64,000 nucleotides of DNA from an uncultured Actinomycetes bacterium. GTDB lineage: Bacteria; Actinomycetota; Thermoleophilia; UBA2241. Where the stretch lies: positions 32,001 through 96,000 of the forward strand of contig CAVRZA010000002.1 of assembly GCA_963725665.1 (NCBI GenBank), given 5' to 3'. The notes below the pieces were generated by a model, which saw nothing but the letters and a program-made list of their open reading frames with translations, did no database searches and was not told the origin of the DNA. The position numbers were made by a program, and so were the translations under genes. This document shows positions 4,796 through 39,850 of this stretch, in pieces; the stretch's first letter is position 1; the number at the start of each line of letters is the position of its first letter.

Positions 4796-5693
4796 CGTTC
4801 GGCCGACAAGGCAGCAGACGCACCCGTCGCGCACGGAGCAAGCGGTGGACGTCGGCAGCCTCGAGTACCGCCGCTTCGGGCCATTTCATCGCTGGGTGCA
4901 CTTCTTCGTGATGGCCAGCTTCACGGTCCTGGTCTTCACGGGCATGCCGCTCAAGTACAAGGATGCAGGGTGGGCCAGGACCGAGATGGACTTCATCGGC
5001 GGCGTGCAGGCGGCCGGGGTGTTCCACCGCTTTGCGGCGATGATCATGGTCTCGTGCGTTGTGTGCGAGCTGTTCTACTTCGCTCGCTATATCCTGGGCC
5101 GAAAGGGCCCTCTATGGGGTCCGGGTACGATGGTTCCCACGCGCAACGACTGGGCGGACATGAAGGCGATGTACCGCTGGTTCTTCGGCCTGGGACCCAA
5201 GCCTGAGGGATTCGACCGCTACACCTACTGGGAGAAGTTCGAGTTCTGGGCTGCCTCGGGCGGCGTGATGACGATGGTCGCCACCGGCTTCATGTTGTGG
5301 TTTCCTGTGCAGACCGCGCGGTTCCTGCCCGGCGTCTTCCTCAACTTGGCCATGGTGAACCATGCGGGCGGCGCCTTACTCGCCATGGGGTTCGTGTTCG
5401 TCTTCTGGCACGTCTTTCACGCCCACTTCAGGCCCGAGGTGTTCCCCTTCGACAAGGTGATGTTCGATGGCACGATGCCGGCTCCGGAGTATGCCGAAGA
5501 GCGGTCCGTGGAGTACCAGCGCCGCGTGCGCTCGGGCACGCTCAGCGAAGTGCTCGTCGAACCTGCTGGGCATACGCGCAAGGCGTTCGAGAACGTCGTT
5601 TGGTGGGCGATCACCCTCATTGCCATGGTCGTCTGGACCATCTTCGCTGTGTTCACGGCGTGGATCACGCTGCTTTGGATCGGCGTACTCTAG
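4776..5693 (+). CDS. di-heme cytochrome b subunit (FdnI/HydC/CbcB-like)
   Basis: ATG 4776 after GGAGGG; YRRF..FHRWVH, TGMPLKY, FDRYTYWEKF, His-bearing TMs, HFRPEVFPFD. Confidence 0.88.
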   Translation: MAAAPTDVRPTRQQTHPSRTEQAVDVGSLEYRRFGPFHRWVHFFVMASFTVLVFTGMPLKYKDAGWARTEMDFIGGVQAAGVFHRFAAMIMVSCVVCELFYFARYILGRKGPLWGPGTMVPTRNDWADMKAMYRWFFGLGPKPEGFDRYTYWEKFEFWAASGGVMTMVATGFMLWFPVQTARFLPGVFLNLAMVNHAGGALLAMGFVFVFWHVFHAHFRPEVFPFDKVMFDGTMPAPEYAEERSVEYQRRVRSGTLSEVLVEPAGHTRKAFENVVWWAITLIAMVVWTIFAVFTAWITLLWIGVL

Positions 5694-6110
5694 GAGCGCC
5701 GTGACCAAAGGCTTGCGCTCCGGCGTACGGCCCCGCCTTGCCCAGAGGGCCGGATCTCGATCCGAACCGCCCCGTGTAGCGCGAATGGGCACACGGCCCC
5801 GCCGTTGCGACCTGCGTCAGACGTGACTACCAGGTCTGTGGCACCCAGCGGTCTGCCAGAGTGTGACAAGCGCGCCGCTTCCTCACTGCGCTCGTACCGT
5901 CCGGCCTAGACCCCACTTATGTCCTGGGCGATGCTCTAGGAGGAGCGTCAGCCGCGGCTCTTCCGTGGGCTTGCGTCAGGTCTTGTCCCCCATCCCCATG
6001 GGGAATGCGAGAGAAACGACAGCCTGACCTCGACCCGTACTCCGCAGTGTCACCTCGCCGCTGTCATGATGCGACGATTTCCCTGCATATCGGGATGCAC
6101 GTGGACGGCG

Positions 6111-30659: not shown

Positions 30660-32012
30660 CTACTCGGCCCGTGGCTCGGGCGCCACGAACTGCTCCTGGG
30701 GGTGCTGGTGGGCGAGCCGGTCGGCCTCGGCGGCTGGGAGGATCCGTCCCGAGCTCCTGATCTCTTGCCAGGCCGCATGCAGGATCGGCGCCGCGATGGC
30801 CAGACCGGCGAGGTTGAAGATGCCGCCGAGGGCGATCACCCAACCGCCGATCACGCTGTAGAGGAGTGGCGAGACGAGGGTGCCGACGAGCGCCGCCAGC
30901 TGCATCGCGGTCGTTTCGAGCCCCTGGATCGTGCCCAGCCAGCGCTGCGGGCTGACCTGCACGAGGAACGCCTGCTTGGCCGGGTACGAGTAGGCGATGG
31001 CGATGCCCTCGATCACGCTGAAGAGCAGCAGCACCCACAGCACGGTCACCGTGCCGTAGATGACCCACGTCACGCCGGAGATGGCGTAGCCCGAGAACAT
31101 GAGCAGGAACCGGTTGCCGCGGTCGGCAATGTAGCCGCCGACGAACGACAGCAGCATCGGGACGCTGAAGGCGATCCACGTCCAGCCGACGAACGCCATC
31201 GAGGCGCCAAGGTGGCGTAGGTAGATGCTCCAGATCACGTCCCACGTGCCCATGGCGAAGTGGCCCGCGGCGGCGACGAGTATGAAGGCGAGGATAGGGC
31301 GGTTCAGGAGCGTGCGTAGGGGAGGTCGCTTCACCTTCTCGCGACGGCGACGGCGGCCACGTTCGGGCTCCTTGAGTCTGAGCAGCAGGACCAGCGCGAC
31401 TATGGCCGACGCGGCGCTGCCGAAGAGGAAGATCGAGTAGAAGGCCCACTTGCCCTCTCCGCCTCCGAGCGAGTAGAGGGGCCAGGCGAGCGCCGGCCCT
31501 GCTACGAGGCCGCCGAACTGGGCCGTGGTCAGCCAACCGTAGGCGCGGCTGCGGTTCTCGTCGATCGTGATGTCGGCGATGAACGCCTGGCCGGCGGGGC
31601 CGACGGCAGCCGCGCCGACGCCCTCGAGGAACCGGAAGAGGAGGAACCACGCCGGCTCCGTGGTGCTCACGAAGAGCAGCGTGGCGACGGCGTACAGCAC
31701 GACGCCGGCGACGATGACCGGCTTGCGCCCGATCGTGTCGCTGAGCCGCCCGAGAGGGGTCGAGAAGAGGAACGTGCCGACGAAGTAGCCGGCGGCGATC
31801 ACGCCGATGAGCCACAGGGAGGCGTGCGCCTGCTCCTGGAGGAAGACCGGCAGGTACGGCAGGATCGCTCCGAAGCCCGCCCAGACGACGAAGCTGGCGA
31901 GGCAGACGATGTAGAGCTGGCCCCAGTCGGTGTCGCGTCCGGACGCGGCCGGCGGCGCAGCGATGTCGGCAAGGTGGGGCACGCGGACTCTCTCCCGGCG
32001 GACGACGCGCAA
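30660..32012 (-). CDS. MFS transporter (DHA1-like)
   Basis: GRLSDTIGRK motif A, 12 TMs; start may be GTG 31982. Confidence 0.9.
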   Translation of the reverse strand: MRVVRRERVRVPHLADIAAPPAASGRDTDWGQLYIVCLASFVVWAGFGAILPYLPVFLQEQAHASLWLIGVIAAGYFVGTFLFSTPLGRLSDTIGRKPVIVAGVVLYAVATLLFVSTTEPAWFLLFRFLEGVGAAAVGPAGQAFIADITIDENRSRAYGWLTTAQFGGLVAGPALAWPLYSLGGGEGKWAFYSIFLFGSAASAIVALVLLLRLKEPERGRRRRREKVKRPPLRTLLNRPILAFILVAAAGHFAMGTWDVIWSIYLRHLGASMAFVGWTWIAFSVPMLLSFVGGYIADRGNRFLLMFSGYAISGVTWVIYGTVTVLWVLLLFSVIEGIAIAYSYPAKQAFLVQVSPQRWLGTIQGLETTAMQLAALVGTLVSPLLYSVIGGWVIALGGIFNLAGLAIAAPILHAAWQEIRSSGRILPAAEADRLAHQHPQEQFVAPEPRAE

Positions 32013-32191: not shown

Positions 32192-33424
32192 TCAGATCTC
32201 GCGCACCCGCGCCGTTGCGAGCCCGATGAGGCCGGGCAGGCCGACGATGAGCCCAGCGACGACGAACAGGCCTTGCACGCTGTAGATGCCGGCGAGCGCG
32301 CCGCCGACGAGGATCGAGAGGGCGTAGAAGCCCTGCGTGAGAGCGAAGCGGACACCCCAGACGCGGCCGCGCAGGTGCTCGGGCACCGTCTCCTGGAAGA
32401 ACGTGTCGATCGAGATAAGCGCGGCCGCGTTGGCCACTCCCAGCGCGAGGAACGCGACCAGGATCGTCGTCAGGTTGTGAAGCAAGCCCACGAAGACGAG
32501 CGAAGCGCCCATGACGCCCAGGCCGACCGTCATGGCGTAGCCCTTGCGGACGCGTGACCCCAGGCCGGCGAGCAGGGCGGATCCGCCGAGGTACCCGACT
32601 CCGATGGCGGCCTCCATGAGGCCGAAGGCCTTGGTGCCCTGCCCCAAGACGTCCACGGCGAGCAGGAACGTGAGCGGGTAGGCGGCGCCGAGCCCGAGCA
32701 CGGCCGCGACGACCAGCACGGTGTTCGCCGCGAGCTGGCTGTGACCGAACAGGAATCGGATGCCCTCCATGATCTCGGCGCCCACGTGGCGAGCATGGCG
32801 AAGGGCGGCCTCGCGCACCGGGGGCACGTAGACCATAAGCGCGAGGGCCGCGGCTGAGACGAGGAAGGTGCCGCTGTCGGCCGCGAAGGCGATCCGTGTC
32901 GAGAAGTAGTAGGCGACGAGACCGGCCACCGAATAGCCGATGATCTCGCTCAGGTTCTCGCCCATCGTCAGCAGCGAGTTGGCGCGCACGAGCTGCCGTC
33001 GCTGCACGATGTCGGGCAGGAGAGAGAGCTTACAGGGATCAAAGAAGACGGCGACGCTCGCCATGGCGAAGCTGATGGCGAACACGAAGGGCAGCCCCGG
33101 ATGCGCGACAAGGGCCACGGTCAGGACAAGCCCTGCGCGCACCAGATCGGCGACGATCATCAGGCGGCGCTTGTTGAAGCGATCGATGACAACGCCGGCG
33201 AACGGCCCAAACAGGACATACGGCAGCGTGTACAGCGCCAGGACCACGCCTGTGGAGAAGGCCGAGCCGGTCTTCTGGTAGACGAGCCAAGGGAAGGCGA
33301 CCATGGCGAGCCGGTCGCCGAGCTGCGAGACGACCTGACCCGTCCAGAGCAGCAGGAAGTTGCGGTTGGCGGAAAGCCTCTGGGTCGGGAGTGCCGCGAT
33401 GGTGTCCGACGTCGCCACGCGCAA
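32192..33424 (-). CDS. MFS exporter (DHA3/MefA-EntS-like)
   Basis: NRNFLLLWTGQVVSQLGD, AGVVIDRFNKRRLMIVADLVR, QETVPEHLRGRV. Confidence 0.9.
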   Translation of the reverse strand: MRVATSDTIAALPTQRLSANRNFLLLWTGQVVSQLGDRLAMVAFPWLVYQKTGSAFSTGVVLALYTLPYVLFGPFAGVVIDRFNKRRLMIVADLVRAGLVLTVALVAHPGLPFVFAISFAMASVAVFFDPCKLSLLPDIVQRRQLVRANSLLTMGENLSEIIGYSVAGLVAYYFSTRIAFAADSGTFLVSAAALALMVYVPPVREAALRHARHVGAEIMEGIRFLFGHSQLAANTVLVVAAVLGLGAAYPLTFLLAVDVLGQGTKAFGLMEAAIGVGYLGGSALLAGLGSRVRKGYAMTVGLGVMGASLVFVGLLHNLTTILVAFLALGVANAAALISIDTFFQETVPEHLRGRVWGVRFALTQGFYALSILVGGALAGIYSVQGLFVVAGLIVGLPGLIGLATARVREI

Positions 33425-33502
33425 GTTGTACCGGTTCGACTCTCGGTTGACAAACGCGAGCCCCAGTTTGCAGGGAGAGTGTTGTCAGCGCGCCAGAAGT
33501 GT

Positions 33503-33532
33503 TGTCAATGTTGGCGATAGGGAGGGTTGACA
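33503..33532. promoter_or_regulatory. BirA-type operator TGTCAAT-N16-GTTGACA
   Basis: Matches TGTYAAC-N14-16-GTTRACA; extra half sites at 33445 and 33483 (AGTGTTGTCA direct repeat, 20-nt period). Confidence 0.55.
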
Positions 33533-33649
33533 TTCATCGTATTGGCCAGTAGCGGATTCGTGGCCGGCGTAGTCACGGCTGGATACGATGCTCCCACGCT
33601 GATCGTTGTATCAGCGTTTGGTGCTCACACTGCAACGGAGGGGCCACTC

Positions 33650-33679
33650 ATGCGTCGTGAGAACGTCAGACTGCACTAG
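33650..33679 (+). CDS. 9-aa micro-ORF MRRENVRLH
   Basis: Strong SD GGAGGGG 6 nt upstream of ATG; same RLH C-terminus as the next peptide. Confidence 0.45.
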   Translation: MRRENVRLH

Positions 33680-33700
33680 CTTCGCCGCAGGCAACGAACT

Positions 33701-33778
33701 ATGAGGAAGATCGAGACAGTACTGGCGTCAATCCTCATGGCGCTAGTGTCTTCGGGGGGGAGCGCCAGGCTCCACTGA
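33701..33778 (+). CDS. 25-aa peptide MRKIETVLASILMALVSSGGSARLH (signal-peptide-like precursor)
   Basis: Basic N-terminus, hydrophobic core, GG then SARLH; immediately upstream of the HD-GYP gene; absent from ORF track. Confidence 0.65.
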   Translation: MRKIETVLASILMALVSSGGSARLH

Positions 33779-33835
33779 TTTCCCAGCCTTAAGAGTCGCA
33801 GGTATCATGCCGATAGGCTTACTATCTGCGGCGGG

Positions 33836-35272
33836 GTGATTTTGGCTGGGCAAAACCGATTGTTCACCGCGTACGCCGGCGCGATGCTCACGGCATCAAT
33901 CGTCGGCTTCCTTGTCGCATCTTGGCATGCGCACCTGCTTGACTTGCCCCTATCGGGCTTCGCCACCGTTGGGCTGTTCACTCTCCTCGCGATAATCGCA
34001 GAAGAGCTCTCCGTTGTTGTTTCTGACCGCGTTACGATCACGGCTAGCAACCTCCCCCTTCTGCTCGGAATCATGTTTCTCGGCACCCCGCGCGCTGTTC
34101 TCACGGCGGCTCTCGTCGGGCTGTGGGGGAGTTGGCGCGAGGAGTCCGCTCCACTGGCCGTGTTCAATGTGTCCAACTTCATGCTCACCACGTTGCTCGC
34201 GTCGCTGGCGTTCGAGGGGCTCCGTTCAACAACGGGGTTCAGCCTATCCGAGGTCTCGGTCGAGCTGCTTCTTGCGGGCGCTGTCGCTGGGCTCATCTAT
34301 CAGGTTGGTGCTCTTGCTTTTCTCAGCGTGGGAGCTCGGCTCAGATATGGCCGATCGCTGCGCCGGTTCTGGCGAAGCGAACTCGCCCCGCTAGGCCAGT
34401 CTCTTGCCATCCTCACGGGCCTCGGGTTGGCCGTCGCAGCGGTCTACGCGCAAGCGGGGGTGATCGCCGTTGCTCTGCTCTTCATCCCCCTCTTTGCCGC
34501 CCAGTACATGTTCAAACTGCTCGTGGAGCAGAGGCGTCTCCTGGCCGAACAGAGGCAGCTGTCCGACCAGTACCTCGAGATGAACATCGGGCTCGCTGCG
34601 GCGATGGTGGTGCTCCTCGACAGCAAGGATGAGTACACCGCCAGTCACTCGGCAGCAGTCGCCATGTACTGCAGGGACATGGCCCTGTCCATGGGGATGT
34701 CCGAGGACGAGGCTGAAGCCCTGCACCTGGCCGGTCTGCTGCACGATCTCGGAAAGGTCGGGACGCCGGACGCCATCCTCAGGAAGGACGGCAAGCTCGA
34801 CCCCGACGAATGGGCGTTCATCCACGAGCATCCGGCCAAGGGTGCCGAGGTGCTCTCTCACCTTGCCGCCTACAAGGACGTAGCCGACATCGTGCGCTAT
34901 CACCACGAACGTCTCGACGGCAGTGGCTACCCCTACGGGATCCGCGATGGGCAGATCCCCGAGCTCAGCAAGATGCTGGCGGTCGCGGACGCCTACCACG
35001 CCATGACCTCGGACAGGCCCTACCGGCCGGCGCGGAGCTCGTTTGACGCGCTGAAGGAGTTGCGGCGCATGTCCGGTGTGAGCCTGGACGGCAAATACGT
35101 CGAGCTCCTGGCCTCCATTTTGCGGGACAAGGATCTCGCCTACCGGGAGGGCACCTCGACCGACTTCATGGGCGAGTACGAGCGCGGGCGGATCAACCTC
35201 CGCCTCAGGGCGGACGCGATCGCTCAGATCAGCGAGACGATGCGGGCACGCCGAGACCCAGCCGTAGGCTGA
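33836..35272 (+). CDS. membrane-bound HD-GYP c-di-GMP phosphodiesterase with multi-TM sensor domain
   Basis: ~6-7 N-terminal TMs, coiled linker, KDEYTASHS, LLHDLGK, HHERLDGSGYPYG, VADAYHAMTSDRPYR. Confidence 0.93.
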   Translation: MILAGQNRLFTAYAGAMLTASIVGFLVASWHAHLLDLPLSGFATVGLFTLLAIIAEELSVVVSDRVTITASNLPLLLGIMFLGTPRAVLTAALVGLWGSWREESAPLAVFNVSNFMLTTLLASLAFEGLRSTTGFSLSEVSVELLLAGAVAGLIYQVGALAFLSVGARLRYGRSLRRFWRSELAPLGQSLAILTGLGLAVAAVYAQAGVIAVALLFIPLFAAQYMFKLLVEQRRLLAEQRQLSDQYLEMNIGLAAAMVVLLDSKDEYTASHSAAVAMYCRDMALSMGMSEDEAEALHLAGLLHDLGKVGTPDAILRKDGKLDPDEWAFIHEHPAKGAEVLSHLAAYKDVADIVRYHHERLDGSGYPYGIRDGQIPELSKMLAVADAYHAMTSDRPYRPARSSFDALKELRRMSGVSLDGKYVELLASILRDKDLAYREGTSTDFMGEYERGRINLRLRADAIAQISETMRARRDPAVG

Positions 35273-35783
35273 CCAGAGCAGAGGCGACGAAGCTCGCAGC
35301 CAACGCCTTCACCAGATCCACGGGCACGAAGGGGACCACCCCTTCGAGGAGAACGGTGCGCACGTCTCCAATGTGAAGCTGCCACGCCAGCCACGTCGCG
35401 CCGAGGGCGTAGATGGGCACGAGTGCGACCACGGTGGCGAGTAGCAGACGCAGACGAGTCCCTCCACGCCCCGCCAGCCATCCGGCAAGGGCAGCAGCCG
35501 CGACGAAGCCGAACAGATAGCCCCCCGTAGGCCCGAGGAGCACGCCGAGGCCGGAAGTCGCCTGCGCGTACACCGGAGCCACAAGACCCAGCAGCAAGTA
35601 CAGCGCAACGGCAAGAGCCCCGAGGCGGGGGCCGAGAACGACGCCCGCGAGCAGCACGAAGAACACCTGCAGCGTGAACGGGACGGGGCCCCAGAACGGC
35701 AGCGCAAAGAGGCCGCCGACCGCGACGAGCGCGGCGAAGAGGGCGGCCATGACGAGAGCGCGTGTCGAACCTGAAGCAGGCAA
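35229..35783 (-). CDS. bioY: biotin transporter S-component BioY
   Basis: PVPFTLQ, GPTGGYLFGF, IYALG..WL, PFVPVDLVK. Confidence 0.93.
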   Translation of the reverse strand: MPASGSTRALVMAALFAALVAVGGLFALPFWGPVPFTLQVFFVLLAGVVLGPRLGALAVALYLLLGLVAPVYAQATSGLGVLLGPTGGYLFGFVAAAALAGWLAGRGGTRLRLLLATVVALVPIYALGATWLAWQLHIGDVRTVLLEGVVPFVPVDLVKALAASFVASALVSLRLGLGVPASSR

Positions 35784-35850: not shown

Positions 35851-36867
35851 CTAGTGGAGGGTGACCTCCCCCGCGTGGAATCGACGAATATGCCGGTGCG
35901 GAAGCTCCACCAGCAAAGCGCCGCGGTCGTCGATGCCGGCGGCCTCACCGATGACGGGCCCCTCGCGCGTGAGGACGCTCACGCTGCGATGCAACAGATA
36001 GTCACGTGCACGGAAGCCTCGCAGGGGCTTCTCGAAGCCGTTGGCCGCCGCATCTAGGTAGCATTTCTCCAGGGCGAGCAGGATGCGCGCGAGAAGGACG
36101 CTCCTATCCACAGGCCTCCCCGTCGCGGTCTTCAAGGAGGTAGCCGAGCGGCGGAGGGTGACGGGGAGCTCGGCGTACTCCGTGTTCACGTTGATGCCGA
36201 CGCCCACAACGACCCAGTTGACCTCGTCGAACTCGCCCGACACCTCGAGCAGGATCCCCCCGACCTTGCGGTCGTTCACTATGAGGTCGTTGGGCCACTT
36301 GACCTGGACGGGGGTCTTTGTCTGCCCCTCGATGCCCTCGGCCGTGGCGGTCGCGGCGACGAGAGTGAGGAGATGGGCCTCTGTCATCGGCAGCCGCGGC
36401 CGCAGGACGACCGAGAAGAGCAATCCCTTGCCGGCCGGCGATGTCCACTGACGGCCCAGTCGACCACGACCGGCCGACTGGTGCTCGGCGATCACCACGG
36501 TGCCTTCCGGAGCACCGCCGCTTGCCAGCCTCTTGGCCTCGCTGTTTGTCGACTCGATCTCGTCGTAGTACCTGAAAGAATGCCCGAACAACGTGTTCTG
36601 CATGAGTTTGGCGACGACCGGCATGACCAGCCGGCAGGGCTCCTCCTCGAGTCTGTAGCCGCGCCTCGACACACCAAGGATCCGGTAGCCGCGGCGCCGC
36701 AGCGAGTTGATGTGCTTGTGTACTGCGTTCCGGGAGATGCCGAGGCTGCCGCTTATCGCTTGGCCGGAGACAAAGCCGGGACTGTCACGAAGAATGTCGA
36801 TCACTGTCTTCTTGCGATGGCTCATCGTTCCCGATTCGACGTGTACCACTGACGCTGACGACTCCAT
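35851..36867 (-). CDS. birA: bifunctional biotin-protein ligase/repressor (class II, N-terminal HTH)
   Basis: VSGQAIS..LGISRNAVHKHINSLR, STN, QSAGRGRLGRQW, KWPNDL, KVGGIL, GVGINVN; RBS GGAGG. Confidence 0.95.
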   Translation of the reverse strand: MESSASVVHVESGTMSHRKKTVIDILRDSPGFVSGQAISGSLGISRNAVHKHINSLRRRGYRILGVSRRGYRLEEEPCRLVMPVVAKLMQNTLFGHSFRYYDEIESTNSEAKRLASGGAPEGTVVIAEHQSAGRGRLGRQWTSPAGKGLLFSVVLRPRLPMTEAHLLTLVAATATAEGIEGQTKTPVQVKWPNDLIVNDRKVGGILLEVSGEFDEVNWVVVGVGINVNTEYAELPVTLRRSATSLKTATGRPVDRSVLLARILLALEKCYLDAAANGFEKPLRGFRARDYLLHRSVSVLTREGPVIGEAAGIDDRGALLVELPHRHIRRFHAGEVTLH

Positions 36868-36922
36868 CTCTCCTCCTCGCTCGCAATTGAGGCCATGGTA
36901 GGAAGATGGAGATCGACCGTAA

Positions 36923-39850
36923 TCAAACCTCGGTTGTATCTGCGGTGGCCTGCGGTTGTGGAGTCTGGCGCGGTTCGTCCCGACAGTCGTTCCGCGCCTC
37001 GCTCGCGGATTCCCTATACAGCAGCACAGCATGAACCCTGTCCGTGACGCCCACCTTGCCGAAGATACGATTGACGTGCGTCTTGACAGTTCCCGGAGCT
37101 AGGAAGAGCCTCTTGGCAATCTCGTCGTTGCGCATTCCCTCTGCCATCATCGACAGAATCTCACGCTCCCTCTTCGTCAGCTGGGTCAAGAACCCAGCAG
37201 GGGAATTCGCACGATCTGACTTCGACGCCATTTGTCCTGCTAGACGTCGTACGGAGGCAAAGCGACTTCTTGTCGCCTTGTGCAGAAGCACGTCCAAAGA
37301 CTGCGTTGGCATCCTGCTCCCGGCACTCTCCAGTGCAGCTGACGCGACCTCTGGGTTCACTGCGAGCGCTTTCATCATGAGTGGCAGCCCGTTGGGATGG
37401 ATTGCCACTGTGTCAAGAAGCGACCGACCCACTGAGTGGGGCAGCTTCTGGAGCAAATCGAGACAGAGGACGGGCTCGCCGCAAAGCTCCTGGCTCAGGA
37501 AGTGAACGTGGCCTCGTTCGAGTTGGCTCTCAACCACTTCTTCGAGCGATTGGATAGCCGCTTCTCGGTTTCCTCGACGCCAACTCAAAACCCCTGTGAA
37601 GAAGTCGCATTTCAGCTGTACGAATTCAAGGTTGCTTGCGCGACTCCGTGCCGCGACTGCGTGAAGATCGCGGAAGGGACGATTCGAATCCCCTTGGAGT
37701 CCACGAGTGAAATGGAGATTCGCGAGGCAAGTGAAGTGGGGATACGGAAAGCGTTCCGACACCAATTCGGATCCCCGCTTGTAGCAGGCGTGTGCTTCGT
37801 CGAGATTACCGGTGCGGCGGCAAGCCGTGCCCATGTGGGAGAGGGTTAGAGCGCGAACTAGACCGTCGTCCGCTGCTTGTGGGGCCTCGGACGCTGTCTT
37901 GACCAGCTGGTAGCCACTTTCGAAATCACCCCTACTGACCAGAACCTGGCCCAGAGAATCCAGCGTCATGTGCTCCAGATGGTGGAAGCCGCACCGAGTC
38001 AAGAGCCCAAGAGACTCGCGGATCAACTCCTCCGCCTCGCGATAGCGACCCAAATGCATCTCCATGTTGCCGAGCACGTTGAGGAATGACGCTTCCAAGA
38101 TGCGAGGGCCGTGTTCACGCAGTCGAGTAAGTGCGGAGCGTCCCTCCTCCGCGGCGCGCAGGAAGTAGCCCCGGAAGTAGTCGCAGTACGCTCGCATGCA
38201 GGCTATTCGAAGCTCTTCAGGTGCGGTCGCGTCTACCAGGGCTTCCTCCGCTTGTGACCACAGTGATTCGCACTCCGCCCACTGCGCCTCGAGCATAAGA
38301 GCTGCACCGAGGCTAATGAGGGAGTGAGCTTTCTTGGTCCCATCCGGTGCGTACTTGATGGCCCGGCGACACTCAGCGGCGGCGGCTACAGTGTCGCCTT
38401 TCCAGAACAGAGCTGATTCAATCGCAGACGCGGCGTGGTATCGGCCCCACCTGTCCCTCCTTTGGGCGAAGGAGGCTTCTGCTGAGCGGAAGATGGCGAT
38501 GGCTTCGTCGAACCTCCCGTCGCGCAGGTCGATCTGGCCGGCGAGAAGCAGTGCCCAGACGCTCCCTCGCCTCATGTCATTGGGCAGTCGAGCAAGCCAC
38601 GATCGCATGCTGTCGAGGGTCGAGTTCTCGAGGGCTAGCTCACCCGCCTTGGCAAGACAATCGAGGGCGAGCGTCGGCTCATTTGCGGACAAGTAGATCT
38701 CGACGGCGACTCCAGTGTCGCCCGCTCGTTCCATGACGCTGGCGGTCTTCAGCTGCAGGTCGTGGAACTCGCGCGCGCCGTCCTCTTGGGCGCACTTCTG
38801 GCGCAAGTAGTCGCGAAAGAGAGGATGGTAGCGGTAGGTGAGGCGCGCGGCATCCGCGAAGGTGAAGACCTGGTTCTTCTCGAGGTAGTCGAGGATGCGC
38901 TCGGCGTGGTCGCCCCCTGTGATCTCGTTGGCGAGGGCTGCCGTCACGTAGTCGAGACAGCTTGTGCGTTTCAGGAAGCCCCGCGTCTCATCACTTTCTC
39001 GCTGATAGACCTGTTCTGCGAGATACGAGAAGACGTCGCTCTTCAGTCGCGGATCTCCCAGCGCCACCTCGATGGCGGGCAGTCCGTCCCACTGCAGGGC
39101 TTTGCAGGCGAGCACCACGCTGGCTGGCCAGCCCTCCGTGAGCTCCTCGAGACGTGTCGCAGCAGCCACAGGTATCTCGACGTCTGCGCGCAACTTGAAC
39201 ACCGTCCTGATCTGTCCGGCATCGAGCCGCAGGTCTTCGTAGCGGAGCTCGGCGATGTCGTCGTCTAGCCGCAGTTTCGCGGTCGAGAACGAAGGCTCGA
39301 ACCGCGTGAGAAGGACAACGTGAACGTGGCCAGGCAGGTTGGCGAGTAGGAAATCGAGGGCTTTGTTGAGTTCACGTGAGGCCGAGGCTTCGTGGTAGTC
39401 ATCGAGGACGAGGTGAAGCGTCAGCTTCACCTCGTCCTCGAGCTCGTGGACGAACAAGGCAAGCAGTTCAGGGACGGTGATCGGCACCTCGCGCGAGTTG
39501 GAGAGGCGTTCGATGACCACCTCGCCGAAGCTTGCGACCTGTCGGCGAATCGCTTCAGTGAGCGAGGCCACTAGTACGATCGGGTCGTGATCGAGGACGT
39601 CGAGCTTGTACCAGGCCGTCGTCCAATGGAGTCGCCCGGCGGCTTCAGCGATCAGCGTACTCTTGCCGTAGCCCGCGGGCGCCGAGACGAGCAGCAACCT
39701 CCGCTGTGCTCCCTCGGCGACCTTCTCGAGTAGGCCGGCTTTGATGCTTGCCTGGCCGACGGAGGGCGGTGAGAGCTTGGAGGCGACAAGCGTGGGGCTG
39801 CCGGAGGCCGGCGAAGCGGGGGGACGCGCAGCATCTCGGGTGCCGGGCAT
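36923..39850 (-). CDS. MalT-like STAND NTPase-TPR-LuxR transcriptional regulator
   Basis: SAPAGYGKST Walker A, LVLDDYH, TEGWP, YRYHPLFRDYL, TPR-like helices, LTKREREIL..N.EIA..LFLAPGTVKTHV; extended -10 TGCTATACT at 39870-39862. Confidence 0.93.
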   Translation of the reverse strand: MPGTRDAARPPASPASGSPTLVASKLSPPSVGQASIKAGLLEKVAEGAQRRLLLVSAPAGYGKSTLIAEAAGRLHWTTAWYKLDVLDHDPIVLVASLTEAIRRQVASFGEVVIERLSNSREVPITVPELLALFVHELEDEVKLTLHLVLDDYHEASASRELNKALDFLLANLPGHVHVVLLTRFEPSFSTAKLRLDDDIAELRYEDLRLDAGQIRTVFKLRADVEIPVAAATRLEELTEGWPASVVLACKALQWDGLPAIEVALGDPRLKSDVFSYLAEQVYQRESDETRGFLKRTSCLDYVTAALANEITGGDHAERILDYLEKNQVFTFADAARLTYRYHPLFRDYLRQKCAQEDGAREFHDLQLKTASVMERAGDTGVAVEIYLSANEPTLALDCLAKAGELALENSTLDSMRSWLARLPNDMRRGSVWALLLAGQIDLRDGRFDEAIAIFRSAEASFAQRRDRWGRYHAASAIESALFWKGDTVAAAAECRRAIKYAPDGTKKAHSLISLGAALMLEAQWAECESLWSQAEEALVDATAPEELRIACMRAYCDYFRGYFLRAAEEGRSALTRLREHGPRILEASFLNVLGNMEMHLGRYREAEELIRESLGLLTRCGFHHLEHMTLDSLGQVLVSRGDFESGYQLVKTASEAPQAADDGLVRALTLSHMGTACRRTGNLDEAHACYKRGSELVSERFPYPHFTCLANLHFTRGLQGDSNRPFRDLHAVAARSRASNLEFVQLKCDFFTGVLSWRRGNREAAIQSLEEVVESQLERGHVHFLSQELCGEPVLCLDLLQKLPHSVGRSLLDTVAIHPNGLPLMMKALAVNPEVASAALESAGSRMPTQSLDVLLHKATRSRFASVRRLAGQMASKSDRANSPAGFLTQLTKREREILSMMAEGMRNDEIAKRLFLAPGTVKTHVNRIFGKVGVTDRVHAVLLYRESASEARNDCRDEPRQTPQPQATADTTEV

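Follow-up and report, generated by a model that had tools for sequence, protein, structure and literature searches.

What is the function of an unannotated 25-codon open reading frame (ORF) located immediately upstream of a gene encoding an HD-GYP-type phosphodiesterase of cyclic di-GMP (c-di-GMP)? The question was raised by a 64 000-nt stretch of DNA, hereafter the window, from an uncultured member of the Thermoleophilia (Actinomycetota). The window corresponds to G000:C2:32001–96000, that is, to positions 32001–96000 of contig C2 of the source genome G000, which is 3.73 Mb in size and 97.5% complete; G, L and X numbers are used below for genomes, loci and sequencing runs, respectively. An earlier note, made from the letters of the window, had described the frame, designated hereafter as ORF2, as encoding a precursor-like peptide, and had pointed to double-glycine leaders, Phr/PapR precursors and a partner of the HD-GYP sensor within the membrane as possible parallels. 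Our comparative analysis indicates that ORF2 is a genuine translated, family-specific micro-gene, far beyond a chance frame. It is preceded by a companion mini-ORF (ORF1) with the same C-terminal motif, and a predicted promoter lies between ORF2 and the HD-GYP gene; both had been missed in the note. Tentatively, and with rather less than even confidence, we favour the view that ORF2 encodes a membrane micro-protein resembling a signal peptide, which would function together with the intramembrane-sensing HD-GYP phosphodiesterase encoded next to it; ORF1 would be a companion upstream ORF (uORF).

Identification and conservation of ORF2

ORF2 extends on the forward strand from an ATG at position 33701 to a TGA at 33776–33778 (33701–33778), encoding a polypeptide of 25 amino acids (MRKIETVLASILMALVSSGGSARLH, followed by the stop). 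Its stop codon is separated by 57 nt from the GTG start codon of the HD-GYP gene (33836), and the frame is present exactly as the earlier note had described it. The product consists of a basic N-terminus, a short apolar stretch, a Gly-Gly pair and a polar tail of the form S-x-[K/R]-[ILMV]-His; between E5 and K/R23 it has 17 uncharged residues, of which only about 11–13 are strongly apolar. The Shine-Dalgarno (SD) sequence is weak, as had been remarked in the note, since the 20 nt preceding the ATG contain no GGAG-type word.

Homologs were searched for in genomes of the same family of uncultured Thermoleophilia (metagenome-assembled genomes, MAGs, of Thermoleophilia/Actinomycetota), none of them from the window's own genus. 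Using the 25-residue peptide in tblastn searches against related loci, a co-linear ORF of 25–26 amino acids was identified upstream of the HD-GYP orthologue and on the same strand, complete in 17 relatives. Alignment of 18 orthologous ORF2 sequences (alignment A1) gave the consensus M-K-K-x-E-x-V-L-A-S-L-L-x-A-L-V-x-x-G-G-S-S-K-I-H, in which M1, G20 and H25 were invariant, and the same 18 sequences made the profile for a six-frame search. This search identified ORF2 as a single copy per genome (E = 1e-10 to 1e-14) in 67 of the 89 family genomes; 25 of 32 high-quality family genomes and all 11 of 11 genera were positive. In a class-wide sample of 301 genomes, the profile matched 45 of the 55 family members; members of other families in this sample gave only six weak matches (E >= 7.8e-4), all inside open frames of 149–680 amino acids and therefore regarded as chance hits. 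Searches of Pfam and NCBIfam gave no match to ORF2 at E <= 10, and a profile search against PDB returned only hits with E > 1.

The pattern of substitution in ORF2 is that expected of a coding sequence. For the 16 ORFs of exactly 25 codons, pooled synonymous differences (pS 0.66) exceeded non-synonymous ones (pN 0.25), pairwise identity by codon position was 0.67/0.82/0.47 and the GC content at third positions (GC3) was 0.77. The pS/pN values and the codon-position pattern are the signature of a translated gene rather than of a conserved RNA or DNA element and, together with the orthologues in 67 family genomes, they bear out the assumption of the earlier note that the ORF is real. In a near-identical strain (X3), 14 substitutions were found in 33429–33823, only one of which (33730 A>T, synonymous) fell inside the 108 nt of ORF1 plus ORF2, and in the relative represented by the RNA library X20 the changes AGG>AGA and TGA>TAG retained the arginine and the stop, respectively. 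Column entropies across 34 unique sequences were lowest at M1, K2, K3, E5, S10, L12, A14, G19, G20, K23 and H25, and all 34 full-length unique sequences ended in [K/R]-[ILMV]-H-stop. The length varied from 24 to 26 residues among 35 unique sequences, with a family consensus of M-K-K-I-E-x-V/T-L-A-S-L-L-x-A-L-V-x-x-G-G-S-S-K-[ILMV]-H-stop. All elements of the signal-peptide-like layout read in the note (an n-region M-K/R-K, a short apolar core, Gly-Gly and a polar tail) are thus conserved in the family; positions 17–22 are always occupied by small residues, with possible −3/−1 sites after G20, S21 or x22. A helical face of conserved residues (S10-A14-S18), spotted by eye, was dropped as a periodicity test gave it no support.

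The Gly-Gly codons of ORF2 are covered by a run of seven G (33754–33760, forward strand), which the earlier note had considered prone to error and potentially phase-variable. Neither suspicion held. Contigs from the DNA runs X2 (33649–33797) and X3 (33429–33823) and from the RNA library X20 (33737–33912) showed no indel in the run, the only indels listed for the contigs relative to the window being at 33611 and 33620, and the frame given by seven G ends in GGS-x-[K/R]-x-H-stop, the tail that is conserved family-wide. Contigs of a further run, X1, leave 33741–33901 uncovered, and the contigs are uninformative on RNA ends and expression levels. Relatives spell Gly-Gly as GGC GGC, GGT GGA, GGG GGC or other pairs that are mostly not G-runs; the run is therefore private to the lineage of the window, and phase variation is no conserved property of the locus.

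ORF1 and the shared C-terminal motif

ORF1 (33650–33679, forward strand) is a frame of nine codons (MRRENVRLH, then stop) with the same motif at its end as ORF2. A strong SD sequence, GGAGGGG (33637–33643, forward strand), is located 6 nt before its ATG, and nearly all relatives have a GGAGG-type word before ORF1. The end of ORF1 (AGA CTG CAC TAG) and that of ORF2 (AGG CTC CAC TGA) both read R-L-H-stop, while three positions differ. In 47 of 48 assessable loci, an ORF ending in [K/R]-[I/L/M/V]-His-stop sits 5–60 nt upstream of ORF2 (in this count, L044 is without upstream DNA and L071 without an in-frame start). Over the loci, the codons used for Lys/Arg (AAG, AAA, AGA, AGG, CGC, CGT), His (CAC, CAT) and the stop (TGA, TAG, TAA) all vary, which indicates a constraint on the peptide and the stop rather than on any nucleotide word. 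ORF1 and ORF2 had identical middle residues in the motif in 35 of 47 loci; as most of these are close relatives with K-M-H, no covariation is claimed.

ORF1 as a whole is 5 to 33 codons long and varies freely outside the motif, and the motif itself is often repeated, with one in-frame copy in 19 loci, two in 12, three in 14 and four in 2. The repeat units differ by lineage, with lengths of 5 codons (SFKIH), 6 codons (SPIKVH), 8 codons (IKFGGKMH, LDTMGKMH) and 9 codons (ITADYAKLH). All four unit lengths are, in nucleotides, multiples of three, which argues for selection at the level of translation. The whole mini-ORF was duplicated instead, together with its SD sequence, in L062/G091, G043, L068 and L019. 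A minority from one clade has out-of-frame units (L051, L070, L071, L094 and L097); as these loci are from MAGs, sequencing indels and decay are inseparable. Separately, in L096 (around 5600–5800; HD-GYP protein 45% identical), L062/G091 and L069, ORF1 and ORF2 were recognisable, beginning and ending in frame but with the middle out of frame after one or two frame shifts, and here too decay and error are inseparable, several of these loci being from MAGs with plausible indel errors.

Within the genome of the window, only 2 of 3091 SD-preceded ORFs of 5–35 codons end in [KR][ILMV]H. The motif is thus a property of the ORF1–ORF2 locus rather than a general device, and a genome-wide regulon of K-x-H uORFs, considered as a candidate, was rejected on the same count. 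We propose that ORF1 is a companion uORF of ORF2, its product or its translation sharing whatever recognises the C-terminal tripeptide. None of the distant HD-GYP homologues of other families (L025, L028–L031) has a uORF ending in the motif. Two of these, L029 and L030 (G037 and G027, from other families of Thermoleophilia), have six-codon mini-ORFs with very strong SD sequences, MKYSGW and MQFKWY, each followed by a stop and situated about 160 nt upstream of the distant homologue; these may represent a different type of leader peptide. A small ORF on the minus strand between the MFS gene that flanks the locus and ORF1 was rejected as coding because its conserved words lie in different frames depending on the locus, as expected of nucleotide motifs.

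The HD-GYP gene and its linkage to ORF2

The gene downstream of ORF2 (33836–35272, forward strand) encodes a c-di-GMP phosphodiesterase of 478 amino acids with an HD_5 match of 136 bits and an N-terminal MASE9-like membrane domain. In the window protein the MASE9 match spans residues 30–223 and scores 21.6 bits, under the cut-off of 24.3; MASE9 was matched in 18 of 26 HD-GYP orthologues at E <= 0.01, and a MASE9 domain is probable in the window protein on the basis of these profile matches. According to the available text of Galperin & Chou (10.1101/2021.11.05.467447), MASE9 is argued to bind its ligand within the membrane. The residues of the HD and GYP motifs, H303-D304 and G364-Y365-P366, were invariant in the 26 orthologues, and the neighbour of ORF2 is regarded as an intact enzyme. 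All 24 sampled family genomes gave an HD-GYP match, and syntenic orthologues were 58–75% identical.

ORF2 is tightly linked to this gene. For 62 of 69 ORF2 matches an HD-GYP orthologue was found downstream on the same contig and strand, at a distance of 47–112 nt (60 matches) or 369–396 nt (2 matches). Among the remaining matches, that in G079 also adjoins an HD-GYP gene (in frameshifted pieces), five are at contig ends and one (E = 1e-3) is spurious. The possibility that ORF2 is a lost N-terminus of the HD-GYP protein or becomes fused to it by read-through was rejected. The two are in frame in the window, yet in only 10 of 18 loci overall, and the orthologous proteins all begin just before the first membrane helix. 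An apparent ORF2/HD-GYP fusion in G043:C7 was traced to an indel-ridden duplicate of G043:C10.

Predicted promoters and transcription units

The consensus of promoters recognised by WhiG, a sigma factor of the sigma-28 family, is T(A/C)AA-N16-GCCGATAA or CTCA-N16-17-GCCGAACT (bioRxiv 10.64898/2026.01.14.699351 and PMC8325347, available text). The criteria adopted were those given in the available text of the former study, namely a −35 element T(A/C)AA, a 16-nt spacer, a −10 element GCCGATAA with central CGA and a distance of <=200 bp from the start codon; all promoter assignments made here are consensus matches combined with alignments by eye. Between ORF2 and the HD-GYP gene, a WhiG/sigma-28-type match, TTAA-N16-GCCGATAG (33789–33816, forward strand), is located 20 nt before the GTG, with one mismatch in the −35 element and one in the last base of the −10 element, the central CGA being kept. 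The word TGCCGATA was found between the two genes in 35 of 46 loci, and T[A/C/T]AA-N16-GCCGA or CTCA-N16-17-GCCGA was found 2–40 nt past the stop of ORF2 in 33 of 46. The HD-GYP gene is thus predicted to have a promoter of its own, 3' of ORF2.

A sigma factor of the FliA/WhiG family is encoded in the genome (G000:C3:272079–272756; TIGR02479, 280 bits against a cut-off of 189.6). The search for flagellin N-domains found none in the genome, which fits a WhiG-type rather than a flagellar role of this sigma factor, and a flagellar regulon was rejected for the same reason. A loose form of the WhiG pattern had 16 matches genome-wide, compared with 5 for the reversed control. Other WhiG-type matches are at G000:C2:463543–463570, C6:440218–440243, C11:43566–43591 and C11:226525–226551, and several lie 8–70 nt before the starts of genes for predicted secreted proteins or lipoproteins and of one DUF4388-like gene. 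The pattern matches suggest that WhiG has a regulon of small size in this genome, where flagellin was not detected. Among the 12 WhiG promoters of Rubrobacter radiotolerans that are supported by start sites, 5 lie in front of genes for diguanylate cyclases or c-di-GMP phosphodiesterases (PMC8325347, available text); with this precedent, a WhiG-driven HD-GYP gene would be ordinary for this part of the phylum.

A second WhiG-type promoter was predicted on the minus strand in 26 of 46 loci, for example at about 5770–5800 in L046, immediately 5' of ORF1. Its −35 element overlaps the SD sequence of ORF1, it is directed to the MFS genes and its predicted transcript is antisense to the 5' end of ORF1–ORF2; in the genome of the window its central CGA is lost. 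For ORF1–ORF2 themselves, TACGAT (33584–33589, forward strand) is a candidate −10 element, aligned by eye with TAGAGT/TAGGGT, which is conserved in relatives about 13 nt 5' of a conserved element of the 5' untranslated region. The predicted 5' end of the mRNA carries a hairpin, ACGCTGAT/ATCAGCGT (33596–33617, forward strand), with 8 bp and a 6-nt loop, present in both minimum free energy (MFE) and centroid folds; relatives have a different hairpin, GTCAACC(AC)...(GT)GGTTGAC, at that place.

The divergent control region further contains an imperfect palindrome, GTTGTCAA-TGT-TGGCGAT (33501–33518, no strand assigned), corresponding to GTTGTCCA-N3-TGGCAAC in relatives, and a second GTGTTGTCA at 33479–33487. 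Of 46 loci, 33 contain GTGTTGTC and 36 contain GTTGTCCA, at a fixed distance of 104–105 nt from GTCAACC, and the palindrome looks like an operator, for which it is a candidate. In the relatives L045–L097, TTGTCC/ATGTCC follows about 40 nt after the palindrome in the divergent control region of the MFS and HD-GYP genes. Judged from these matches, ORF1–ORF2 appear to form a small, separate transcription unit, flanked by two WhiG-type promoters that fire outwards. Transcription is predicted to start near 33595 for this unit and near 33822–33825 for the WhiG-type promoter of the HD-GYP gene. A contig of 249 nt from an RNA library of a relative begins near the end of ORF1, spans ORF2 and takes in the first ~25 codons of the HD-GYP gene; as DNA can occur in RNA libraries, this is only a weak hint of read-through from the ORF2 unit into the HD-GYP gene.

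RNA structure and attenuation

Searches against Rfam (E <= 10) gave no match in the intergenic region and two chance-level matches inside the flanking genes, and no site resembling an intrinsic terminator was found in 33300–34000. In the MFE fold of the window, 33779–33788 pairs with 33844–33853. Across 39 loci, pairing of the region after the ORF2 stop with the ribosome-binding site (RBS) of the HD-GYP gene exceeded that of shuffled sequences in 11 (median 0.4 pairs against 1.67 expected), and pairing of ORF1 with the RBS of ORF2 did so in 15 (0.37 against 3.09 expected). Conserved RBS-masking helices were therefore rejected, despite the helix in the window itself, and classical attenuation is not supported by these predictions.

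Flanking genes and assembly artefacts

The gene divergent from ORF1, on the minus strand (32192–33424), encodes an MFS transporter (MFS_1/MFS_3) and is syntenic in 47 of 55 related loci. The HD-GYP gene is followed, on the minus strand, by genes for BioY, a biotin transporter component (35229–35783), for BirA, a biotin ligase/repressor (35851–37032), and for a 975-residue AAA-TPR-LuxR regulator of the MalT-like STAND type (36923–39850). According to tblastn searches of the 55 related loci, a second MFS gene was present in 44, the HD-GYP gene in 55, BirA in 49 and the AAA-TPR-LuxR gene in 47. Two observations concern assembly rather than biology. The locus occurs twice in one bin (G043:C7:30800–33200 and G043:C10:6800–9300; L115 and L116), on a duplicated or error-prone contig, and the first ~50 bases of L013 (G017:C196) look like a remnant of a sequencing adapter, which we take to be an assembly artefact in the MAG.

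Possible functions of the ORF1 and ORF2 peptides

The function that we tentatively prefer starts from what was observed, namely two conserved ORFs, a coding signature, a close linkage to the HD-GYP gene and a match to a promoter consensus. The ORF2 product would be a membrane micro-protein that either resembles a signal peptide or spans the membrane once. It would act in trans on the MASE9-type HD-GYP phosphodiesterase, for whose sensor domain ligand binding within the membrane has been argued, and would tune the breakdown of c-di-GMP through this enzyme. The proposed unit would run from the candidate −10 element over the 5' hairpin and the strong SD sequence of ORF1 to ORF2, followed by the WhiG/sigma-28-type promoter that would drive the HD-GYP gene. 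The whole of ORF2 is constrained, core and N-terminus included, which argues for more than a mere export signal or a mere arrest peptide, and it is this full-length constraint, next to a MASE9-like neighbour, that favours a membrane micro-protein. Of the options raised in the earlier note, an intramembrane partner of the HD-GYP sensor is accordingly the one that stands best, with its location in the membrane and its binding to MASE9, like an effect on the activity of the enzyme and the role of the shared motif, being what we infer from conservation and gene context.

Several findings weigh against a partner protein. The strongly apolar stretch of ~11–13 residues is short for a transmembrane helix, and conservation lacked helical periodicity (100 degree; permutation p 0.49–0.93). 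The motif shared beside the stop codon resembles arrest or leader peptides. In G014 (100% complete) the HD-GYP gene is intact and ORF2 is missing, while two mini-ORFs, MRQSWKLR and MRKSWKLR, each followed by a stop, are present; in G022 the HD-GYP gene is intact, the start codon and tail of ORF2 are lost and ORF1 ends in VIKIH-stop; and in G091 ORF2 has an apparent frameshift. As the HD-GYP genes of G014 and G022 are intact, the enzyme can do without ORF2. A pure partner-protein model leaves unexplained why mini-ORFs outlast ORF2 in these two genomes, a finding that fits a role in cis. Linkage by itself says little about a functional tie, the whole neighbourhood (two MFS genes, HD-GYP, BioY, BirA and the STAND-LuxR gene) being syntenic throughout the family, and translation, membrane insertion and binding of ORF2 are themselves predictions.

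The main rival is a cis-acting leader cassette, an explanation that we consider possible if rather doubtful. ORF1 and ORF2 would then be regulatory uORFs in which the nascent [K/R]-[ILMV]-His (or K-L-R) at the stop slows termination or elongation and so sets how far a non-WhiG transcript from upstream reads or translates into the HD-GYP gene, by way of Rho polarity, ribosome occupancy, re-initiation or occlusion of the WhiG promoter. Across genera, both ORFs finish with one and the same tripeptide plus a stop while the rest of ORF1 is free, as expected if the partner were the invariant ribosome. ORF1 has a strong SD sequence and a length of 5–33 codons, motif copies were amplified independently (four unit lengths, tandem mini-ORFs), and the RNA-library contig that spans ORF2 and the start of the HD-GYP gene adds a weak hint. 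The 25 codons of ORF2 approach the length of known termination-arrest peptides, TnaC among them. PepNL, as described in the available text of PMC11890864, is a further such peptide of similar length. A leader cassette thus best explains why the motif adjoins the stop, why it was amplified independently and why mini-ORFs are retained where ORF2 is lost. However, no conserved pairing with the RBS of the HD-GYP gene or of ORF2, no terminator-like site and no Rfam match was found in the analyses above; transcripts from the HD-GYP gene's own WhiG-type promoter would be without uORFs; ORF2 is conserved over its full length, including M-K-K-I-E and the apolar core, beyond the needs of known arrest peptides; and the motif is not used as a general device in the genome. 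Two wider proposals take up the same motif. In an unlikely peptide-to-second-messenger circuit, the free C-terminal Lys/Arg-aliphatic-His end of the ORF1 and ORF2 peptides, the latter membrane-targeted or secreted and the former leaderless and often multi-copy, would be the ligand of the MASE9 sensor of the HD-GYP protein; the amount of peptide would determine c-di-GMP and thereby, by way of the c-di-GMP/RsiG/WhiG switch, feed back on the WhiG-type promoters on either side of the cassette, towards the HD-GYP gene and the MFS exporters. As novel as this circuit would be [K/R]-aliphatic-His-stop as an undescribed termination-pausing motif of the ribosome in a two-uORF relay.

Release of a peptide outside the cell, the idea behind the parallels drawn in the earlier note, in which the product was SARLH, is decidedly unlikely. 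ORF2 would here be a precursor that is inserted or exported after translation and that signal peptidase or an intramembrane protease cleaves near G19-G20-S21-x22. The product, a [K/R]-[ILMV]-His peptide of 3–5 residues or a longer C-terminal fragment as with SHP/iCF10-type pheromones, would be perceived outside or inside the membrane, perhaps by the HD-GYP protein. The n-h-c layout, recognised by inspection, is typical of signal peptides and has small residues at 17–22, the tail [S/N/G]-x-[K/R]-[ILMV]-H is strongly conserved and two MFS exporters are syntenic neighbours. Yet double-glycine precursors have an amphipathic leader of ~15–25 residues and then a core peptide of substantial length, and Phr/PapR precursors, of ~40–60 residues, have a Sec signal peptide and a pro-region. 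The stretch before Gly-Gly in ORF2 is an uncharged apolar core and not amphipathic, only five residues follow the pair, and the 35 unique sequences have no pro-region and are far shorter than Phr/PapR precursors. No match to the C39 peptidase (PF03412), and hence no C39/PCAT transporter, was found in the 97.5%-complete genome, although control genomes did match, and no ABC transporter was among the neighbours scanned with Pfam. ORF2 adjoins no RNPP, Rgg or other peptide-receptor gene, its neighbours being two MFS transporters and the HD-GYP enzyme; the sole TPR protein nearby is the AAA-TPR-LuxR protein, ~3.1 kb off on the opposite strand. Both parallels were abandoned on these grounds, as was a precursor of a ribosomally synthesised and post-translationally modified peptide, since no maturase, peptidase or ABC gene lies within ~10 kb and no radical-SAM or other peptide-maturation gene nearby. 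Conservation of the apolar core (S10, L12, A14) equals that of the tail, which a mere export signal would not show; over 11 genera the tail has undergone few and conservative changes, with no pherotype-like diversification; and ORF1 bears the motif with no export signal. More improbable still, ORF2 would have no tie to the HD-GYP enzyme and encode a membrane-active micro-peptide, either type-I-toxin-like, with translation following a leader ORF and an mRNA 5' end overlapped by an antisense transcript, or an MFS accessory, its adjacency reflecting family-wide synteny. A short basic and apolar peptide behind a leader ORF, the broadly syntenic neighbourhood and the antisense WhiG-type promoter in 26 of 46 relatives would fit; but ORF2 is single-copy, fixed in position and vertically conserved over 11 genera, unlike mobile type I toxin loci, its conserved polar tail, common to ORF1, is no toxin feature, and the antisense promoter is missing in the genome of the window. 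Scarcely credible to us, finally, are metal-binding peptides from ORF1 and ORF2, with His, Met, Cys and Lys as ligands, tied to EntS-like MFS exporters and the metal-dependent HD-GYP enzyme. A free tripeptide with His at position 3, as would arise if ORF2 were cut before K23, is a site of the amino-terminal Cu(II)- and Ni(II)-binding (ATCUN) type. His, Met and Cys are abundant in several ORF1s (L054 has four C-G-K-M-H units where L053 has four of M-G-K-M-H), the ORF1s of L045, L066, L085, L090 and L091 have an extra N-terminal His, and MFS_3 (EntS-type) transporters are syntenic; the argument is, however, purely compositional, most ORF1s have a single His and no metal-regulator site was recognised at the locus.

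Significance and comparison with known systems

Proteins of <30 residues are routinely overlooked in annotation, and no gene caller would report ORF1 or ORF2. The pair is nevertheless a conserved feature of an entire family of uncultured Thermoleophilia; it is placed where the gene of a c-di-GMP-degrading enzyme is controlled, in a class whose WhiG sigma factor is governed by c-di-GMP. What is new is a small-protein family together with a companion uORF, the two having in common an unusual C-terminal motif that can be amplified; the kinds themselves, micro-proteins and uORFs, are known. No such ORF is described in the part of the literature on MASE9, WhiG or small proteins with HD-GYP enzymes that was surveyed, and no upstream uORF pair is mentioned in the available text of the WhiG promoter papers (bioRxiv 10.64898/2026.01.14.699351, PMC8325347). 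The functions proposed for the peptides are drawn from sequence comparison, and what they would mean depends on which holds. If ORF2 binds MASE9, it would be the first candidate ligand or partner of an orphan intramembrane sensor and a rare case of micro-protein control of second-messenger turnover; should it be the ribosome on which the motif acts, nascent chains would have a new regulatory motif, one amplified 2–4 times independently in several lineages. If neither is true, a well-supported new small-protein family is left.

Among known systems, double-glycine leaders and Phr/PapR precursors between them share with ORF2 a Gly-Gly before a short C-terminal peptide and a signal-peptide-like N-terminus, whereas ORF2 has no C39/ABC exporter, no RNPP neighbour, an apolar leader, five residues after Gly-Gly and 25 in total. 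SHP/Rgg and PrgQ/iCF10 of Firmicutes come closer in size, with precursors of some 20-odd residues, an n-region of the M-K-K type, an apolar core and a C-terminal active part; there, however, the pheromone is the apolar C-terminus and is encoded beside its Rgg/PrgX receptor, while the C-terminus of ORF2 is polar, its neighbour is an HD-GYP enzyme and its phylum is Actinomycetota. TnaC and the two-leader attenuators of ermA resemble ORF1–ORF2 as short same-strand uORFs, with residues conserved right before the stop or with two frames in succession, and so does PepNL (PMC11890864, available text). Unlike these, ORF1–ORF2 have no conserved RBS-masking helix or terminator, a promoter intervenes before the gene, ORF2 is conserved over its full length and stalling at ORF1 or ORF2 is hypothetical.

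Modulators of the MgrB-on-PhoQ type are similar in being micro-ORFs of a few dozen codons, with a basic N-terminus and one apolar segment, that are tied to a membrane signalling protein, and in the helix-to-helix contact proposed inside the membrane. ORF2 differs from them in having no sequence relation, only ~12 strongly apolar residues and a polar tail common to a companion uORF, and its target, to which binding is proposed, would be a c-di-GMP phosphodiesterase and not a histidine kinase. For the promoter, the nearest parallel is with the WhiG promoters of R. radiotolerans (PMC8325347, available text). The site in the window is a consensus match only, whereas those promoters are supported by start sites; in both cases the match is located <200 bp from the start of a gene for a c-di-GMP enzyme, in a basal actinobacterial class that encodes WhiG.

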